Below, piece by piece: positions 11,759 through 25,338 of a DNA stretch of 64,000 bases. Source of the DNA: Nitrospinaceae bacterium (GTDB taxonomy: Bacteria > Nitrospinota > Nitrospinia > Nitrospinales > Nitrospinaceae); NCBI GenBank assembly GCA_965223665.1, contig OZ245011.1, positions 1,408,001 to 1,472,000 on the forward strand, written 5' to 3'. Position 1 is the first letter of the stretch. Each line of letters begins with the position of its first letter. The notes beneath the pieces are model-generated. The model was not told the DNA's origin. It saw only the letters and a program-made list of their open reading frames with translations, and did not search any database. The translations under genes were made by a program, and so were the position numbers.

Positions 11759-13252
11759 CTATTCCTTATTCATTTTTGTTTGAAGGGGGATGAGCCAGGA
11801 GTCTACATCCTTCACCATATGGTTCAAACCAAATTTTTGGTAAATGGCTCGCGCTTTTTGATAAGCTTCCAGCGCCGCCTCATAATTGTTTTGCCCCTGG
11901 TAAGCGTAGCCGATATTATACCAACCGGTTGCCACCCATGGGTGAGATTCTCCCAAAGTTTGTTTATATATTTCTAACGCCTTTTTATAATACTCAATGG
12001 CTTTGTCAAATTTTTTTTGTCGAATCCAAACTAAGCCAAGGTCACTTAAACTCCATCCGATATGAGGATGAGGCCCTTTAAACAATTTTTCTCTGACTGC
12101 CCTTGATTTCTCATGGTAATCAATGGCCTTATCATATTCCCCCTTGGAATCCCAAGCTTGCCCCAGGTTACTCCAACGAATGGCAATTTTGGGATGCTCT
12201 TCGCCAAAAGTTTTAAGATCGCTGTCCAAAGCCTTCTCATAATACTCAATGGCTTTGTCGTAATCCCCCTTATTATTCCAGGCCCACCCCAGGTTGTTGC
12301 GACAGGTCGCGACATTGGAATGCTCCTCACCATAAGTAGTGAGATCACTCTTCAGCGCTTTTTCATAATACTCAATCGCTTTGTCGTAATCTCCCTTATT
12401 ATTCCAGGCCAAGCCCAGGTTATTCCAATTGGTGGCCACATGCGGATGATCCTCACCATAGGTTTTAATATTACGAGCCAAGGCCTTCTCGAAATAATCT
12501 ATCGCCAGATCGTAATCTCCCTTATGATTAAAAGCCAGGCCCAGGTTGTTCCAACTGGTAGCAATCTCTACATGATCTTCTCCATACGTTTTAATATTGC
12601 AGGCGAAGGCTTTTTTGAGATACTCAATAGCCTTACTGTATTTACCTAACGTATCAAAGATAAGTCCAGTCTCATTCAAATACAATGCATTCTCCGGGTC
12701 CAGTTGGGTAGCCCGCTCAAAATATTTTAGCGCCTTGGCGTAATCGAGTTTATTTTCCGCCAATCGTGCAATTTCGTAAGCCGCTTCGGCGGCCTGCTGT
12801 TTCGATTGGTCCAATTGTTTTTCGGATTTCTCAATATACTTAACATTTTCATCCAACGCCTGTTGGAACAGAGCTTCCGCTTTCTCGGTTTTTCCTTTAT
12901 TTAAATGTTCCTGCGCGTCGGCAATTTGGTCCTCCGGGATCGAAGGCTGCCGCTTTAAAGCTTCTTTGGTTTCCGCCAACAGCTTTTTGGTTTTTTCCAA
13001 ATCCGCTTCAACATCATTCAACCGCGCTTCCGTTAAACTCGAGACTTTTTCCAGCAGAGAAATTTTTTCCTGATCGCGCTGTTGACCTTTTTCATATTCT
13101 ACCTTCAACTGATCCTGAACTTTGCGAACCTCTTTCTCCAGTTCCGCCTTGTGCTCCTGAAGAGAAATGCCGATCTTATTCCCCTGGACGATGTCGCCAT
13201 CGGCGTGAATATTTCCTTCTGCATGAATGGATCTGTTACTCTTACTCATCAT
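11759..13252 (-). CDS. TPR repeat protein (paralogue 1)
   Basis: Repeated VAT.WNNLG.AW..KG.YDKAIEYYEKAL units; N-terminal coiled coil. Confidence 0.9.
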   Translation of the reverse strand: MMSKSNRSIHAEGNIHADGDIVQGNKIGISLQEHKAELEKEVRKVQDQLKVEYEKGQQRDQEKISLLEKVSSLTEARLNDVEADLEKTKKLLAETKEALKRQPSIPEDQIADAQEHLNKGKTEKAEALFQQALDENVKYIEKSEKQLDQSKQQAAEAAYEIARLAENKLDYAKALKYFERATQLDPENALYLNETGLIFDTLGKYSKAIEYLKKAFACNIKTYGEDHVEIATSWNNLGLAFNHKGDYDLAIDYFEKALARNIKTYGEDHPHVATNWNNLGLAWNNKGDYDKAIEYYEKALKSDLTTYGEEHSNVATCRNNLGWAWNNKGDYDKAIEYYEKALDSDLKTFGEEHPKIAIRWSNLGQAWDSKGEYDKAIDYHEKSRAVREKLFKGPHPHIGWSLSDLGLVWIRQKKFDKAIEYYKKALEIYKQTLGESHPWVATGWYNIGYAYQGQNNYEAALEAYQKARAIYQKFGLNHMVKDVDSWLIPLQTKMNKE

Positions 13253-13271
13253 CGTTGTTGCTTATCATTGA

Positions 13272-14582
13272 TTATTTTTTCTCAAGGCGGTCGAGAAAGT
13301 AATCTACTTCCTTTACTATATGGTCCTGACCAAATTGCTGGTACATGGCTCGGGCTTTTTGATAGTTTTGAAGTGCTTTCTCAAATTTCTTTTGCAATTC
13401 AAAAGTATAGCCGAGGTTAAATAAATCCCTCGCAATATCCGGGTGACTCTCGCCATAGTTTTTACGGTCCGTTGCCAAAGCTTTTTCAAAGTACTCGATT
13501 CCTTTTTCAATATTGCCTTTATTGACCAAAGCCGCTCCCAGGTTATTCCAACCGGTGGCCACCCAGGGGTGCCGCTCTCCCAGAGTCTGTTTATAGATTT
13601 CTAATGCCCTCTCATAATATTCCACCGCTTTATCATAATCCTTTTTTCGATCCCAAACCATTCCCAAATCGCTCAAGTTGGATCCAATATGAGCATGCGG
13701 TCCTTTAAACAATTTTTCTCTCACCTGCAAAGCTTTTTCATAATACTCAATCGCCTTGTCATAGTTCCCTTTTTCGCACCACGCTTGCCCCAGGTTGTTC
13801 AAATTGATTGCCACCTGCGGGTCTTCTTCACCATTTAATTTAATGTTGCAGGCCAAAGCTTTTTCATAATACTCAATCGCCTTATCAAACTGCCCCTTAT
13901 AACTCCAGGCGCGTCCCAGACCATTTAAGTTGATGGCAACGTCAAAATCCTCCGCTCCTTTTAATTTTATATTTATATCCAGAGCCTTCTCATGATACTC
14001 AATGGACTTATCAAAAAGTCCCAGCGTAAAATAAAGCGACGCAATAGCAGTCAAATAAACCGGATTGTCAGGAGTCAATAGCGTGGCGCGCTCGAAATAC
14101 TGCAGCGCTTTTGGAAAATTAAGTTTGTTTTCTGCCAACCGCCCGATTTCGTAAGCCGCTTCGGCCGCCTGTTCCGTCTTCTCATCCAGCGCCTGCTGGA
14201 ACAGGGCTTCAGCTTTCTCGGTTTTTCCTTTGTTTAAATGTTCCTGCGCTTCGGCGATCTGGTTGGCGGGAATCGATGACTGCCGCTCTAAAGCTTCCTT
14301 GGTTTCCGCCAAAAGTTTTTTGGTTTTCTCCAAGTCTTCTTCAACATCATTGAGTCTTGCTTCCGTTAAACTCGATACTTTTTCCAGCAGAGAAATTTTT
14401 TCCTGATCGCGCTGTTGACCCTTTTCATATTCTTCCTTCAACTGCGCCCGAACTTTTCGAACTTCTTTCTCCAGTTCCGCCTTGTGCTCCTGAAGGGAAA
14501 TGCCGATCTTATCTCCCTGAATAATGTCTCCACCGGCGTGAATATCCCGCCCGGCATGAATTGATTTTTTATTCTCGCTCAT
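13272..14582 (-). CDS. TPR repeat protein (paralogue 2)
   Basis: Same TPR units; first ~130 aa nearly identical to paralogue 1. Confidence 0.9.
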   Translation of the reverse strand: MSENKKSIHAGRDIHAGGDIIQGDKIGISLQEHKAELEKEVRKVRAQLKEEYEKGQQRDQEKISLLEKVSSLTEARLNDVEEDLEKTKKLLAETKEALERQSSIPANQIAEAQEHLNKGKTEKAEALFQQALDEKTEQAAEAAYEIGRLAENKLNFPKALQYFERATLLTPDNPVYLTAIASLYFTLGLFDKSIEYHEKALDINIKLKGAEDFDVAINLNGLGRAWSYKGQFDKAIEYYEKALACNIKLNGEEDPQVAINLNNLGQAWCEKGNYDKAIEYYEKALQVREKLFKGPHAHIGSNLSDLGMVWDRKKDYDKAVEYYERALEIYKQTLGERHPWVATGWNNLGAALVNKGNIEKGIEYFEKALATDRKNYGESHPDIARDLFNLGYTFELQKKFEKALQNYQKARAMYQQFGQDHIVKEVDYFLDRLEKK

Positions 14583-16896: not shown

Positions 16897-17880
16897 TTAA
16901 GAAATACTTGCAAGCGCCTGTTCGATGCGGTGGTACTGTTCCTCGGTGACAAAACTGGTGAGGACTTTGTTGAAGTGCGGTTGTTGCGCGCCCATAATAA
17001 TGTGCTGCCATCGGTACGCTTTTAAGATCAGCGCTTCCACCGGCCGCCATTGATCCACGGTGAGCACGCGACCACAAGTCCGCGCAAAGTATTCGGCATC
17101 GGCCTGCGACTGCATTTGCAGAATGCCGTCCACCGCGCCGACCAGTTCAATGAACTCGTTCACGCCTCGGTCGCGGCCTTCCCATGAGGTTTGTCGATTG
17201 CAGCGATCCCATTCCAGTTCGTCCATAATGGCGTGCTGACTTTCTTCCATCCAGTGATAACGAAACACATCCTTGAACAGCGGCGACAGACCCTTCTCTA
17301 CTCCAATGCTTTGGCGATAGTGCACCAGCACCACCACTTCAATATGCAGGGTGAGCGCCAACACCGCCCACGTTCCTTTTTCCAACACCACCTGCGCCAC
17401 TTCGTTTGCGTCAGGGACAAATGTGTAACCAGGCGCCATTTGTGAATCGGCCAACTGTTCCAAACGACGGAACATTTCCTGGTGCTTTAATTCTTCATCA
17501 CTGAACCGAATCAGCGCTTCCAGTGCGGTTTGGTCTCCAAACCGGTGATCCTGACTCACTTCCAGCACTTTCGCATTCACAAACCGTTCGGCCATATGGA
17601 AAATGTTGCAGTAAGTCCGACCCTGAATTTGACTCAGGTACCGTTGCTCCGCCTCGGTTAAAAAACCCAATTGGGAAACGAGGGACAGTCCATCGGGCAG
17701 GAACTTCTGAGAGAGATCAAAGGACCGGCCGCGGATCACGTCCTGCTCGATATCCCAGCGCACCGATTTCGATGCCTCAATGCAGCGGGCATAGCGGGAG
17801 GGTTCCTCCCGGCGGGACTCCGCAGTTTGAAAAGGTTCTATATTAATAGCGATGTTTGTTGATGTGGTTTGCGTGGTCAT
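16897..17880 (-). CDS. Ferritin-like diiron protein (AurF/N-oxygenase-like)
   Basis: Paired E...EExxH motifs (DEELKH, EESQH); GGAGG RBS. Confidence 0.7.
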   Translation of the reverse strand: MTTQTTSTNIAINIEPFQTAESRREEPSRYARCIEASKSVRWDIEQDVIRGRSFDLSQKFLPDGLSLVSQLGFLTEAEQRYLSQIQGRTYCNIFHMAERFVNAKVLEVSQDHRFGDQTALEALIRFSDEELKHQEMFRRLEQLADSQMAPGYTFVPDANEVAQVVLEKGTWAVLALTLHIEVVVLVHYRQSIGVEKGLSPLFKDVFRYHWMEESQHAIMDELEWDRCNRQTSWEGRDRGVNEFIELVGAVDGILQMQSQADAEYFARTCGRVLTVDQWRPVEALILKAYRWQHIIMGAQQPHFNKVLTSFVTEEQYHRIEQALASIS

Positions 17881-19632: not shown

Positions 19633-20013
19633 ATGAAAGAGGATTCTGTCACAAGGGCGTATTACCAGGGCATTGCTGATTATGAAGCCGCTCTATTCGA
19701 AACAAACGTTGACCCCGGTTCAGAACCGGACCCCCTACCTTCCTACGAAGACCCAACAAACCTATCATCTCATTACACCACACAACTAAATAGCGACTGG
19801 GAAACTGTCATTTCTGAATTCCACCAAAGCTTACAATCCATTGAACGGGCTGTGCACGAGTTCCATACCATTTATGATTCCACACAAACTCTTGAAGAGT
19901 CTGAACTAGATAATCAACTACAAGGCTACAAAGAATATTTGCAAAATTTATCAGAAACTAACAGCCAACTAATAAAGACCATTAAGGAGTTTCTAGATAC
20001 AGAATCAAACTAA
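19633..20013 (+). CDS. Small acidic protein sharing the precursor leader motif (AYYQGIADYEAAL) plus a coiled coil
   Basis: GGAGG RBS; N-terminal motif matches the AYYQGMADYEASL repeats of the next gene. Confidence 0.8.
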   Translation: MKEDSVTRAYYQGIADYEAALFETNVDPGSEPDPLPSYEDPTNLSSHYTTQLNSDWETVISEFHQSLQSIERAVHEFHTIYDSTQTLEESELDNQLQGYKEYLQNLSETNSQLIKTIKEFLDTESN

Positions 20014-20031: not shown

Positions 20032-21501
20032 ATGTCTACAAATGAAGAATTGGAAGCTTATTATCAAGGGATGGCAGACTATGAAGCGTCTTTAGCCGAA
20101 GAGGAAGGCACTGAAGAAGAACTCTCTGCTGAAGAAGAAGCCTACTACCAAGGGATGGCAGACTATGAAGCGTCTTTAGCCGAAGAGGAAGGCGCTGAGG
20201 AAGAACTCTCTGCTGAAGAGGAAGCCTATTACCAAGGGATGGCAGACTATGAAGCGTCTTTAGCCGAAGAGGAAGGCGCTGAGGAAGAACTCTCTGCTGA
20301 AGAGGAAGCCTATTACCAAGGGATGGCAGACTATGAAGCGTCTTTAGCCGAAGAGGAAGGTGCTGAGGAAGAACTCTCTGCTGAAGAGGAAGCCTACTAC
20401 CAAGGGATGACAGACTATGAAGCGTCTTTAGCCGAAGAGGAAGGCACTGAAGAAGAACTCTCTGCTGAAGAGGAAGCCTATTACCAAGGGATGGCAGACT
20501 ATGAAGCGTCTTTAGCCGAAGAGGAAGGTGCTGAAGAAGAACTCTCTGCTGAAGAAGAAGCCTACTACCAAGGGATGGCAGACTATGAAGCGTCTTTGGC
20601 CGAAGAGGAAGGTGCTGAAGAAAGTGAATTTTCACCTTTGAATGACCCAGCTGACGTGATAACTGGCCCTATAACTCGCCCAATCACAAGACCTTTAACG
20701 CGTCCGTTGACACGGCCAATCACAAGACCCATAACACGTCCGTTGACACGGCCAATCACAAGACCCATAACACGTCCGGTGACTCGACCGATCACAAGAC
20801 CTATAACACGTCCGGTAACTCGACCGATCACGAGACCCATAACGCGTCCGGTGACTCGACCGATCACGAGACCCATAACGCGTCCGGTGACTCGACCGAT
20901 CACAAGACCCATAACGCGTCCGGTAACTCGACCGATCACGAGACCCATAACGCGTCCGGTGACTCGACCGATCACAAGACCCATAACGCGTCCGGTGACT
21001 CGACCGATCACGAGACCCATAACCCGTCCGGTAACTCGACCGATCACGAGACCCATAACACGTCCGGTAACTCGACCGATCACGAGACCCATAACGCGTC
21101 CGGTAACTCGACCGATTACCAGACCCATAACGCGTCCGGTGACTCGACCGATTACCAGACCCATAACGCGTCCGGTGACTCGACCGATCACGAGACCCAT
21201 AACGCGTCCGGTGACTCGACCGATCACGAGACCCATAACGCGTCCGGTGACTCGACCGATCACAAGACCCATAACGCGTCCGGTAACTCGACCGATCACG
21301 AGACCCATAACGCGTCCGGTGACTCGACCGATCACAAGACCCATAACACGTCCGGTAACTCGACCGCTTACCAGGCCCGTAACACGTCCGGTGACTCGAC
21401 CGCTTACCAGGCCCGTAACACGTCCGGTAACTCGACCGCTTACCAGGCCTATTATTCGTCCTGCAACCCGACCTCTTACGAGACCGGTGGGACCTTTTTA
21501 G
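20032..21501 (+). CDS. Putative repetitive RiPP precursor: 7 acidic 28-aa repeats + 68 x-T-R-P-type tetrapeptides
   Basis: GGAGG RBS; repeats vary mostly at synonymous positions in this frame; directly upstream of rSAM and S8 protease genes. Confidence 0.8.
   Translation: MSTNEELEAYYQGMADYEASLAEEEGTEEELSAEEEAYYQGMADYEASLAEEEGAEEELSAEEEAYYQGMADYEASLAEEEGAEEELSAEEEAYYQGMADYEASLAEEEGAEEELSAEEEAYYQGMTDYEASLAEEEGTEEELSAEEEAYYQGMADYEASLAEEEGAEEELSAEEEAYYQGMADYEASLAEEEGAEESEFSPLNDPADVITGPITRPITRPLTRPLTRPITRPITRPLTRPITRPITRPVTRPITRPITRPVTRPITRPITRPVTRPITRPITRPVTRPITRPITRPVTRPITRPITRPVTRPITRPITRPVTRPITRPITRPVTRPITRPITRPVTRPITRPITRPVTRPITRPITRPVTRPITRPITRPVTRPITRPITRPVTRPITRPITRPVTRPITRPITRPVTRPITRPITRPVTRPITRPITRPVTRPLTRPVTRPVTRPLTRPVTRPVTRPLTRPIIRPATRPLTRPVGPF
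20056..20622 (+). repeat. 84-bp coding tandem repeat x7 (last copy partial), unit AYYQGMADYEASLAEEEG(A/T)EEELSAEEE
   Basis: Copies start at 20056, 20140, 20224, 20308, 20392, 20476 and 20560. Confidence 0.95.
20671..21486 (+). repeat. 12-bp coding tandem repeat x68 with 36-bp superstructure (ITRP-ITRP-VTRP)
   Basis: 816 bp = 68 tetrapeptides, nearly all (I/V/L)TRP, with IIRP and ATRP variants near the end. Confidence 0.95.
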
Positions 21502-21902
21502 GAAGGAAGTGAGTCTTTAAATCATAGCAACCAGGAGGTGGTACTTTTTAGAAATACAAATAGATAAGATGACTGAAGATCAGGTTTTCAACAAAACATT
21601 TATCAGTCTGAACTCTTGAGCGTATTTCAAAAGAAATGTAATTTTCCACATCCTTTGCTCAATAAGTTCTCTGGACCCAAAGCAGGACGCTTAGGTCCAG
21701 AGCCAAAGGCAAATATTTTTAATGTTGTCCGAGTTTTAACGATAGAAACTTTTGAACCGGAATCACAAGGCAAGCTTTTATGAACATAACATAGTTACGC
21801 TCTAATGGATTCAGCGTTTATTTTTCTATTTAAAAATACTTTGAGATTAAATAAAACACAATACATAAACTATGTTTAGATGGGTAGGAATCGAGGGGAA
21901 AA

Positions 21903-23756
21903 ATGGATAAGAATAAAGTTTTATTAATTAATATGCCGTTTTCTACTACAAAATGGCCCGTTGTAGGGATTAGCATTTTGAAAGGTCGGCTACTAGAAGA
22001 AGGCATTCCTTGCGACATAAAATATTTTAATTTTGATTTTGCAGAAATGATCGGAATCGATTTATATGAAGAAATCAGTTTAGTACCTCCACAGTTAATA
22101 GGGGAAAGACTGTTTGCACAAGATTTTTTCGGCAGTCAACTGGCCGACCAGGAGCATTATAAGGCGCATCTGCGAAAGGTTTACACGGGACCGGAAAGCT
22201 ACGTGGACAAAATCTTTGGAATTAATAAATTTATAAAACCCTTTTTAGACCGATGCATGCAAACCCTTCCATGGGAGTCCTATAAGATCATTGGCTTTAC
22301 CAGTATGTTTGAACAAAACTTATCTTCAATTTCACTTGCGAGCCGAATCAAAAAACAATATCCGGATAAAACGATTGTATTTGGTGGCGCCAATTGCAGC
22401 GATGAAATGGGAGAAGAGTTACATCGCTCCTTTCCCTTCATTGATATAATTTGCAATGGTGAAGCCGATTTTAGTTTTCCTGAGCTGGTGAAACGAATCC
22501 TAAGCCAAGAATCCTATGAAGAATTACCGGGAGTTATTTATCGTTCCAATGGGGAGTCTATAATAAATCCCGCTACCCCTATGGTTGATAATATGGACGC
22601 ATTGCCTTGCCCTAATTATGATGATTATTTTTCTCAAATGGAAAAATTTCCATTTTTACAGTGCGAAGAATTGCATATGGAAACCTCACGAGGTTGTTGG
22701 TGGGGAGCGAAACACCATTGCACATTTTGTGGATTAAATGCAGAAACCATGGGATTTCGGGCAAAAAGCAAAGACAATGTGATTGACCAAATCAAACAAC
22801 TGACTGAGAAGTATGCGAGCAAATATAATATTGGACGCATTTCCATGGTCGATAATATTCTAGACATGAGTTACTTTAAGGAATTGATTCCGGAACTTAA
22901 GAAAAAGAAGTTTAATACAGAGTTTTTCTACGAAGTGAAAGCCAACTTAAGTGAGCACCAAATCAAAATGATGAGTGAGGCCGGAATCACTTCAGTTCAA
23001 CCGGGAATTGAAAGTCTCAGTACCAACATTCTTGGTTTGATGAAGAAGGGAATCACCAGTTTGCAGAATATTCAGTTTCTAAAATATTGCAAACAATTCA
23101 ATGTTTACCCTACATGGAATATTATTTTTGGATTTCCGGGAGAGAAGCAAGTAGACTATCACCAAACGGTGGAAATGATATATAAAATCACCCATCTGGT
23201 TCCCACTGAAGCAGTCATTCCACTTTCTATGCAAAGGTTCAGCCCCTATTTTATGAACCCGGATCTCTATGGCATTACCAATTTAAGACCGGAAAAAGTT
23301 TATGGTTTAATTTATCCATTTAAAGAAGAACGCATTTCCAAATTAGCTTACTTTTTTGAGTATGAATGTGTTGATGATTTCAAACCTGTTAATAATAAAG
23401 ATGAATTGATGGAAGCTGTCGACTTTTGGCGGGATTGTTATAATAATGGCGAAGGGCTTTACTCAATGGAAATGGATCCGGCAAACATCCTGATTGAAGA
23501 CAGCCGAACGAATTCAAAAATATCGCAAATGATCTTAGATGATGAACAAAAAGCAGTATACGAATACTGCAATACGGTTCGCAGCTTTCCTGCCATTCTT
23601 AAATTTGTTCGAAAGGAATTTCCTAATGATCCGGTAAGAGCAAGGGATGTTAAAGATTTTCTGAACGAAATGGTTGAATTGGATTTAATGGTCAGCGAAG
23701 AGGATAAATATTTAAGCTTAGCCATTTCAAACCAGGAAGAAAGCCGAGCTGCATAA
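21903..23756 (+). CDS. Cobalamin-dependent radical SAM enzyme, RiPP-maturation C-methyltransferase type
   Basis: N-terminal LINMPF...P..G.S.LK; B12-binding region GFTSMFEQ...VFGGAN...GEAD; ETSRGCWWGAKHHCTFCGLN (Cx7Cx2C); VQPGIES; WNIIFGFPGE; RFSPYF; C-terminal PqqD/RRE-like winged helix. Confidence 0.9.
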   Translation: MDKNKVLLINMPFSTTKWPVVGISILKGRLLEEGIPCDIKYFNFDFAEMIGIDLYEEISLVPPQLIGERLFAQDFFGSQLADQEHYKAHLRKVYTGPESYVDKIFGINKFIKPFLDRCMQTLPWESYKIIGFTSMFEQNLSSISLASRIKKQYPDKTIVFGGANCSDEMGEELHRSFPFIDIICNGEADFSFPELVKRILSQESYEELPGVIYRSNGESIINPATPMVDNMDALPCPNYDDYFSQMEKFPFLQCEELHMETSRGCWWGAKHHCTFCGLNAETMGFRAKSKDNVIDQIKQLTEKYASKYNIGRISMVDNILDMSYFKELIPELKKKKFNTEFFYEVKANLSEHQIKMMSEAGITSVQPGIESLSTNILGLMKKGITSLQNIQFLKYCKQFNVYPTWNIIFGFPGEKQVDYHQTVEMIYKITHLVPTEAVIPLSMQRFSPYFMNPDLYGITNLRPEKVYGLIYPFKEERISKLAYFFEYECVDDFKPVNNKDELMEAVDFWRDCYNNGEGLYSMEMDPANILIEDSRTNSKISQMILDDEQKAVYEYCNTVRSFPAILKFVRKEFPNDPVRARDVKDFLNEMVELDLMVSEEDKYLSLAISNQEESRAA

Positions 23757-23796: not shown

Positions 23797-25338
23797 ATGA
23801 GTTCAAAAAAAAGATTTCTGATTGGACACCAAGGCAGTTCCGTGATGCCGGAAAGTTTAACCGAAAGTGTAGATAGTTTCGTCAATGAAAATAAAGATGT
23901 TAAATGCCTCCGCAAATTAAAATCCGGCCAGTGCATTATTGAAATGACTGAAGATCAAGCTGAGAAGCTAGCTCAACAACGCACAGATCTAATTATTGAG
24001 GAAGATCAAGAATTAGAAATGTTTTTCCCGATGCCAGGCCTTTCTCCTTTAGTGTCTGCAGACGAAGAGCTTTCTATTAAATTTAAAGTTGTAAACGAAA
24101 ATAAAAAACCCATCAGCGATGTCACCATTTTTTGTATGGGTAACCAAGTCACTTATAAAGGAAAGACAAATAAAAACGGTCTCGCCACTGTCAGGGTATT
24201 TGAATCGAATTTCAAACACATCATTGCTTCCCCCAGAGCGGATTATTGGTCGCAGGTACAATCTTCCGTAAAAGCTAAAAGCGACAAAGAAATTCAATTT
24301 CAGCTTAAAAAAATTCCAATCAGCGGTGATTATGACTGGGGTCATGTATTGTTGGGAGTAGATAAGGTGAAAGATTCCTTTACCGGAAAGGGTATTAAAG
24401 TAGCCGTTATTGACTCGGGCATTGTAGATCATGAAGATTTAAAAACTGCGGGTGGCTATAATACGTTAGACGGTCAGGACCCTAAAAAATGGGATCAGGA
24501 TGACAACGGCCATGGAACCCATTGCGCTGGAGTCATTGCTTCTCAACAAAATTCCTTGGGTGTGATAGGTGTGGCACCGGAAGCAGAAATATATTCATTG
24601 AAAGTATTTCCAGGGGGCCGATTCAGTGATCTTATGGAGGCCGTAGATTGGTGCATTGAAAATTATATCGATGTGATCAGCATGAGTTTAGGAAGCCGCG
24701 TTCCCTCGAATCTAATTGAGACGTCTCTAATAGAAGCTAATGCTCGAGGAATCACATGTATTGCCGCTGCAGGAAACAATTATGGCAAACCCGTATCCTT
24801 TCCTGCAAAATACGATCATGTCATTGCCGTAGCCGCTATGGGACAACTCGATACCTTTCCGGAAGACAGCGGTCACCAATTAAAAATCGGGAATCATTTT
24901 AGTCCTGATGGAAAATTATTTTCGGCAAACTTCACCAACGTAGGACATGAAATTGATGTATGTGCTCCCGGAGTAGCCATTCTCTCTTCTGTGCCGGGCG
25001 GGTATGCGTCTTGGGATGGAACCTCCATGGCCTGCCCCATTGTTTCAGGTTTGGTCGCCTTAATTCTAGAGGCGTATCCCGAAATCCGGACAGGAGATAG
25101 TCATCAACCTTATTTTGTCCGTGAAATTCTTAAAAGTACTGCAACGGATTTAGGGTTGCCTTTCAACAGGCAGGGAGCGGGTTTACCCAATGCGGAATTA
25201 GCCCTGGAAAATGCCATGCAACGGCTTAGTTATGAAGAAGAAATTGTAAAAGAAAATCGGGAGCGCTTGGAAGCCTTATTACAAATCGCGAATGAAAATG
25301 CCAAGAACATTAAAAGTGCCTTGGCTAAATTACCTTGA
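23797..25338 (+). CDS. S8 (subtilisin-like) serine peptidase, no signal peptide
   Basis: Catalytic triad VAVIDSG / NGHGTHCAG / GTSMACP; oxyanion AAAGN; N-terminal propeptide and beta-sandwich-like insert; C-terminal coiled coil. Confidence 0.92.
   Translation: MSSKKRFLIGHQGSSVMPESLTESVDSFVNENKDVKCLRKLKSGQCIIEMTEDQAEKLAQQRTDLIIEEDQELEMFFPMPGLSPLVSADEELSIKFKVVNENKKPISDVTIFCMGNQVTYKGKTNKNGLATVRVFESNFKHIIASPRADYWSQVQSSVKAKSDKEIQFQLKKIPISGDYDWGHVLLGVDKVKDSFTGKGIKVAVIDSGIVDHEDLKTAGGYNTLDGQDPKKWDQDDNGHGTHCAGVIASQQNSLGVIGVAPEAEIYSLKVFPGGRFSDLMEAVDWCIENYIDVISMSLGSRVPSNLIETSLIEANARGITCIAAAGNNYGKPVSFPAKYDHVIAVAAMGQLDTFPEDSGHQLKIGNHFSPDGKLFSANFTNVGHEIDVCAPGVAILSSVPGGYASWDGTSMACPIVSGLVALILEAYPEIRTGDSHQPYFVREILKSTATDLGLPFNRQGAGLPNAELALENAMQRLSYEEEIVKENRERLEALLQIANENAKNIKSALAKLP

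Follow-up and report, generated by a model that had tools for sequence, protein, structure and literature searches.

A charge-segregated putative precursor of acidic and Pro/Arg repeat arrays in a RiPP-like cassette of a Nitrospinaceae bacterium

In a 64,000-nucleotide stretch of a Nitrospinaceae genome (the window), we found a cassette of four genes on one strand, centered on a precursor in which an acidic repeat array is joined to a cationic one (Table 1). The host genome (G000, 4.35 Mb) encodes a 1153-aa protein that matches nitrite oxidoreductase subunit A with 1710 bits, from which we infer that the host is a Nitrospina-type nitrite oxidizer. To our knowledge, little is known of the peptide chemistry of this group.

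Table 1. Features of the cassette, in window coordinates
Feature	Position	Strand	Properties
Helical partner of 126 aa with one N-terminal YYQGxADYE motif	19633..20013	+	conserved cassette member; no Pfam/NCBIfam family
Diblock precursor	20032..21501	+	489 aa; no Pfam/NCBIfam family over cut-off; without hydrophobic signal stretch
Acidic block	20032..20655	+	7 repeats of 28 aa, AYYQGMADYEASL helix and Glu-rich spacer; net -79; 21 Tyr
Single-copy linker with FSPL and LxxP motif	20626..20670	+	candidate RRE recognition and protease site
Cationic block	20671..21486	+	68 uninterrupted [I/V/L]TRP-type units; 272 aa; net +68
B12-dependent radical-SAM C-methyltransferase with Cx7Cx2C motif	21903..23756	+	TIGR03975, 645.6 bits against a cut-off of 281.85
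C-terminal RRE-fold domain of the methyltransferase	23451..23699	+	model pLDDT 90.4; three strands, then three helices
S8 subtilase with intact Asp/His/Ser motifs	23797..25338	+	PF00082, 174 bits; no signal peptide; conserved cassette member

The two blocks of the precursor are strictly separated in charge. An exact count gave 70 Glu and 9 Asp and not one Lys, Arg or His in residues 1-208, and 68 Arg with neither Asp nor Glu in residues 209-489, in full agreement with the first-pass annotation of this DNA, which had tallied about 79 acids without Lys/Arg followed by 68 Arg without an acid. The same annotation had estimated about 11 negative charges and about 10 cores per leader repeat. The proportions hold up (11 acids in each of repeats 1-6, 10 in repeat 7, and 9.7 tetrapeptide units per leader repeat), but the units (38 ITRP, 21 VTRP, 7 LTRP, 1 IIRP and 1 ATRP) follow one another without spacers and are therefore repeat units, so that naming each a separate core is unsupported. 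Pro and Arg make up 25% and 24% of the cationic block. At the DNA level, the arrays appear as an 84-bp period present 6.8 times (95% matches) and a 36-bp period present 21.2 times (93%), copy numbers that depend on the assembly because public contigs break inside both arrays.

Among the 2477 ORFs of at least 200 aa in the genome, the precursor ranks first in charge segregation (score 68; the runner-up, an ORF of 1861 aa, scores 47), and its sequence charge decoration is -77.8 compared with -0.5 +/- 1.1 in 200 shuffles. In an AlphaFold2 model (pTM 0.23), the acidic block consists of seven separate helices with no fixed fold. At 12.0% D+E and 11.5% K+R, the host proteome shows no acidic bias, which rules out a halophile-type composition as the cause of the acidic block, and a myosin-tail Pfam match of the precursor lay below cut-off and was dismissed as compositional. 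A Shine-Dalgarno-like GGAGG precedes the ORF; promoter and terminator counts at the locus equal those of shuffled sequence.

The neighboring genes suggest that this is very probably RiPP-type processing. Enzymes scoring comparably against TIGR03975 occur in a sister species (673.8 bits, G001 C13) and on a metagenome contig (662.4 bits, L100). In structural comparisons, the best match of the C-terminal domain of the methyltransferase was TbiB1 (Z 9.4, rmsd 2.6, 79 aligned), with lasso B1 at Z 8.5. RosR, a DNA-binding winged helix, tied with these RRE matches at Z 8.7, and Foldseek gave no match for the domain model at E 0.001. Homologues of the 126-aa partner lie upstream in both G001 haplotypes, in L117, in L100 (weakly) and in L004, and S8 orthologues with 44-51% identity are found in L100, L002 and L003. 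No signal stretch was seen in the precursor, the partner or the protease, and no transporter belongs to the cassette. An ABC/HlyD/outer-membrane exporter encoded 7.5 kb downstream was excluded from it because the exporter is on the opposite strand and about 23 kb away in G001. With neither a cassette transporter nor a signal peptide, a toxic exported product is therefore not evident. A graspetide, in which Thr would be joined to acidic residues, was ruled out, as the cassette has no ATP-grasp gene.

Several further features of the region were recorded. Between the precursor and the methyltransferase lies a 400-base gap (window 21502-21902) with no plus-strand ORF of 60 aa; the gap is similar in G001 C4 and only about 70 bases long in G001 C13. 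An AurF-like diiron protein, below cut-off, is encoded near the cassette (window 16897-17880, minus strand) and was not seen beside it in G001. Two tandem paralogous TPR proteins with near-identical N-terminal parts are found at window 11759-14582 (minus strand). The host genome has a second TIGR03975 gene (L082, G000:C1:4053137-4054984) that is distant in the enzyme tree and has no repeat precursor seen nearby.

The sister species G001 carries two versions of the cassette. The chromosomal version has 4 repeats and 34 xTPR units, and the other, with 5 repeats and 41 xxRP units, lies on a 13.5-kb contig that is syntenic with the chromosome and probably represents a second strain. Between these haplotypes, the upstream gene and the S8 protease are each 99.2% identical and the first 100 precursor residues 94% identical, whereas the core is ITRP in one and ITPR in the other, the methyltransferases share only 56.9% identity and their RRE strands differ. 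The window methyltransferase is 93% identical to that of the haplotype with the same ITRP core. Core and methyltransferase thus swap together while acidic repeats and protease stay, which argues that the enzyme is matched to the core; this swap is the best evidence that the methyltransferase acts on the core. The linker is kept in G001 C4 and replaced along with core and methyltransferase in G001 C13. Its LxxP motif occurs in the window and G001 C4, YxxP takes the same place in L100, and G001 C13 has neither. The haplotype comparison therefore indicates that linker, core and methyltransferase move as one exchangeable unit.

The swap bears on what the acidic repeats do. They might form a docking array, in which each YYQGMADY helix recruits one enzyme or one copy of the 126-aa partner and the charge match is incidental. 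The RRE fold of the methyltransferase, the same motif in the upstream partner and the far better conservation of the motif than of its spacers would all fit such an array. Yet the repeats stayed 94% identical while the enzyme fell to 57% and its RRE strands changed, which argues that they are probably not an enzyme-specific docking site and weakens an earlier proposal that they load several enzymes at once. The motif is also predicted to be helical, whereas the sequences that RREs recognize are, with few exceptions, bound in strand form (PMC12710340). Together with the evidence on spacers and core-less arrays given below, this leaves docking an unlikely explanation of the repeats.

A tree built from the window enzyme and the 76 BLAST hits, out of 84, that passed a length filter (77 enzymes in all) places the window, both G001 versions and L100 in one clade (SH-aLRT 99), sister to L001-L004. 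L100 has the same gene order, a PPxR/K core and an extra twitch/SPASM-like radical-SAM gene; its core (L100:7302-8348, minus strand) is a bacterial sequence with 14 P[I/V/F]RPP and 2 PIRXP motifs that resembles the animal peptide Bac5. In L001-L003, the precursors have acidic Gly/Tyr-rich repeats ahead of Pro/Cys/Arg repeats and are accompanied by YcaO and SagB genes; L002 and L003 have the same S8 type as the window. These Pro/Cys/Arg-core precursors (L001:9991-11442, L002:10018-11799, L003:9964-11007), beside YcaO, SagB, methyltransferase and S8 genes, likely represent an undescribed family of azole-containing polyproline RiPPs. The partner gene has a homologue in L004, an NRPS cluster. Elsewhere (L005, L006, L007, L011, L015, L020, L022), an S8 protein upstream of a TIGR03975-like enzyme bears a fused C-terminal Pro/Ile/Arg tail with an acidic end, so that protease and precursor may share one chain. 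Eight other loci (L039, L040, L052, L063, L067, L074, L075, L077) have short precursors upstream of the enzyme with a common leader and repeats with Cys at every fifth position, weakly matching CefA.

If the acidic block balances the charge of the core, the two should scale together, as the first-pass annotation had proposed for leader and core. In the four complete homologues, three of which come from one genus, the net charges of the acidic and cationic parts are -79/+68, -51/+41, -38/+35 and -26/+21, a cationic/acidic ratio of 0.80-0.92 over a threefold charge range (r 0.994; 1/24 permutations, n=4), and whole-protein net charge stays between -3 and -11 across lengths of 268-489 aa. This set leaves out P0014 (ends mid-array), L117 (core off the contig) and L001-L003 (a different acidic block); P0016 was not counted as having a core, since its tail is non-repetitive, with 32 Lys/Arg and 22 acids. 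The proposed co-scaling stands for these four and loosens beyond them. P0014 has a ratio of 0.46 (with two records of equal length, it may be complete), the four L001-L003 precursors have ratios of 0.37-0.89, and the correlation is 0.98 for 5 and for 9 precursors; computed over the 6 precursors from outside the genus, it is 0.72 (p 0.10). Length fits equally well: core residues per repeat are 40, 34, 39 and 35 (r 0.975), with a CV of 6.3% compared with 5.6% for the charge ratio. Docking would predict just such scaling, at about 35-40 core residues per repeat.

A match of this kind could also arise without coupling, if slippage-prone arrays varied independently and the agreement reflected chance, shared ancestry or assembly error. 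Complete motif-type precursors come from only two independent lineages, public contigs do not span the arrays and the ratios of the five other precursors are looser, all of which would fit such independence. However, the repeat units show varied synonymous changes in ordered patterns, and both blocks were rebuilt separately in two species, with ratios holding at 0.80-0.92 in all four homologues. The seven leader units of the window are 87-100% alike in DNA and 72-83% alike to those of G001, and only 2 core 12-mers are common to the window and G001 C4, a pattern showing that both arrays were rebuilt in the lineage of the window. We regard the uncoupled explanation as improbable.

The composition of the spacers offers a second line of evidence. 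Each repeat carries 10.2-11.0 acids in precursors with a core of about 25% Arg and 5.0 in L100, with its core of about 12% Lys/Arg; among core-less arrays the range is 2.3-8.0, with a median of 4.7 (32 rows, several redundant, after 3 of 35 were dropped for having fewer than three motifs). L117, whose core is off the contig, has 11 acids per repeat. This shift of acidity with core density is one independent contrast. Docking leaves unexplained why the spacers that accompany the denser core have twice the acidity.

The acidic module also occurs on its own. Only one of 24 matches obtained without a profile had a Pro/Arg repeat block, and of 29 metagenome motif loci, many of them near-duplicates, 27 encode motif proteins that end without one, one has a core (L100) and one is cut (L117). 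Many of the core-less proteins are encoded by sets of two or three genes, often sharing a small beta-rich domain, that lie before NRPS genes and genes that we take to be thioesterase-like. A core-less acidic family lies before NRPS/PKS genes at L096, L099, L095, L098, L092, L105, L106, L112 and L148, and no Pfam or NCBIfam model matched this YYQGMADY-repeat family. The array in G446 comprises 330 aa with 10-11 repeats and no Lys/Arg and precedes an NRPS/PKS cluster (L148:17822-19448); the genome, whose assembly may be incomplete, has no TIGR03975 protein over cut-off, a further point against docking on that enzyme. Because the module expands without a polycation in NRPS/PKS clusters, it has a function of its own and did not arise as a neutralizer. 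That function is probably self-association via a conserved helix face. An earlier idea that the acidic block neutralizes the polycation is thus supported by co-variation in the four complete homologues and limited by the occurrence of the module alone. Adenylation domains at L004:6076 and L150:2627, in motif-linked NRPS clusters, gave a rough proline-like read-out, which we take to resemble the proline code of such domains and which hints at proline-rich products. We also considered whether the core-less arrays might be paired with a cationic NRPS product and rejected this, since six rough adenylation read-outs, of low reliability, had no clear basic-residue code.

Contacts between Tyr and Arg and blockwise charge drive phase separation. 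A near-neutral Tyr/Arg diblock could therefore condense, gathering enzyme and substrate or forming a storage granule that the protease dissolves, and the core-less arrays would scaffold NRPS/PKS enzymes likewise. All four complete precursors have a net charge per residue of -0.01 to -0.03, strong blockiness and 13-21 Tyr in the acidic block. The Gly/Tyr-rich low-complexity repeats before the Pro/Cys/Arg cores of the sister clade, and the two- and three-gene sets of motif proteins before NRPS genes, would also suit a condensate. A dedicated methyltransferase matched to the core, though, argues for a defined product over bulk storage, and the cassette is rare (2/120 genomes of the phylum). We consider condensation doubtful as the main explanation; it is compatible with a charge-matched propiece rather than exclusive of it.

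With moderate confidence, we favor a model in which an older acidic helical module was recruited and enriched in Glu to become the charge-matched propiece of a methylated Pro/Arg polymer. The four-gene cassette would convert the precursor to a modified Pro/Arg polymer. The acidic block would bind the cationic block, holding the precursor near neutral and keeping the polycation off nucleic acids, ribosomes and membranes. The methyltransferase would dock via its RRE, most likely on the single linker. YxxP and LxxP are known RRE motifs (PMC12710340), and PoyC, whose Cx7Cx2C motif the window enzyme shares, is reported to methylate both Ile and Val (PMC11285071). By analogy with PoyC, the enzyme would C-methylate the repeat units most likely at Ile/Val, with Pro next, as in bottromycin. 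The cytoplasmic S8 protease would then cut at or near the linker, probably near FSPL, freeing a long, proline-protected polycation or fragments of it. Subtilisins favor FSPL-like sites and avoid bonds before Pro, which suggests a long product. In this lineage, spacer acidity rose to about double the family default, keeping pace with a core of one Arg per four residues. Antimicrobial action of the product is possible, given that L100 holds the Bac5 motif PIRXP twice, although the window has none. A bolder version is speculative and, we think, rather unlikely as a whole: the product would be a ribosomally made polycation, methylated and hundreds of residues long, with its length co-selected with the charge-matched acidic array; the YYQGMADY helix, as a general module for self-assembly, would build condensates in RiPP and NRPS/PKS clusters alike; S8 would be the release switch; and core and enzyme would form an exchangeable pair by which the polymer is diversified.

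The system appears rare and, as far as we searched, is an undescribed variant of RiPP. A motif profile found it in 2/120 genomes of its own phylum and 1/351 in the order of G120, with none among 381 genomes in each of two phylum samples and none in two small sets (0/4 and 0/5); a search with the N-terminal part of S8 found 1/351 genomes. The motif was absent from viral contigs and plasmids, and two ESM Atlas queries gave no usable match. A near-full-length protein search, its results crowded by Glu-rich candidates, returned no homologue, and one over longer lengths gave four matches, none with a Pro/Arg repeat block. Our search of mainly open-access literature found no description of the system, and the accessible parts of PMC12931638 and PMC9426513 describe nothing like it; genome-mining tables could list such clusters. 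The latter genome-mining study set TIGR03975 clusters aside as likely false positives (PMC9426513). Here, a substrate of the enzyme can be identified. The cassette offers a compact test system, with one B12 radical-SAM enzyme, one protease and natural ITRP/ITPR alleles, for how enzymes read repeat substrates, and its acidic motif family links RiPP and NRPS/PKS clusters.

Among known systems, the proteusin enzymes PoyB/PoyC (polytheonamide) are close to the window enzyme: TIGR03975 over cut-off, the Cx7Cx2C motif, and an adjoining Ile/Val/Thr-rich precursor and serine protease. Unlike proteusins, the cassette has neither a catalogued leader such as NHLP nor tailoring genes such as an epimerase, and its core is a 68-fold cationic tetrapeptide repeat. 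No NCBIfam model of NHLP/Nif11-type leaders matched its precursor, and NHLP models do respond to locus L059. In TvgA/TvgB and TigB/TigE, a radical-SAM enzyme with an RRE-type domain likewise stands beside uninterrupted Ile/Val short repeats (PMC10878394). Those maturases, however, belong to the SPASM cyclopropyl synthases, and TigB is a 60-aa peptide with at most five repeats (PMC10878394), whereas the window enzyme is of B12 type and not a SPASM maturase, and its substrate has 68 repeats and a repeated acidic block. Cyanobactins, in which a repetitive precursor is served by the dedicated S8 proteases PatA/PatG (PMC10885120), show a similar pairing, and S8 leader proteases are known (PMC10885120). 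The window units, however, have no recognition sequences between them, its S8 scores 54.9 against a PatA/PatG cut-off of 421, and it lacks the cyclodehydratase that sister-clade L001-L003 have.

Likeness to proline-rich antimicrobial peptides, raised by the first-pass annotation, holds for composition. Bac5-type peptides also consist of Pro/Arg-rich repeats (PMC6973051), and L100 shares their PIRXP. That motif is absent from the window core and both G001 alleles, and, unlike Bac5-type peptides, the window core extends over 272 aa and lacks an export signal.

The closest parallel to the proposed role of the acidic block is found in animals. Charge balance between propiece and mature peptide has been described for defensins and cathelicidins (PMC4571063, PMC7073735), and the propieces of alpha-defensins, cathelicidins and frog antimicrobial peptides share an acidic N-terminal part, a cationic C-terminal part and charges that co-vary. 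Anionic animal propieces are removed by a serine protease, the role proposed here for S8. They are secreted and short, with reported correlations from -0.74 to about -0.3 or none (PMC4571063, PMC7073735). The window precursor, which has no homology to them, is bacterial and cytoplasmic, has tandem arrays in both parts and carries charges several times larger. If our model is correct, propiece charge balance would also occur in a bacterium, where the co-scaling of two tandem arrays would bring it about.
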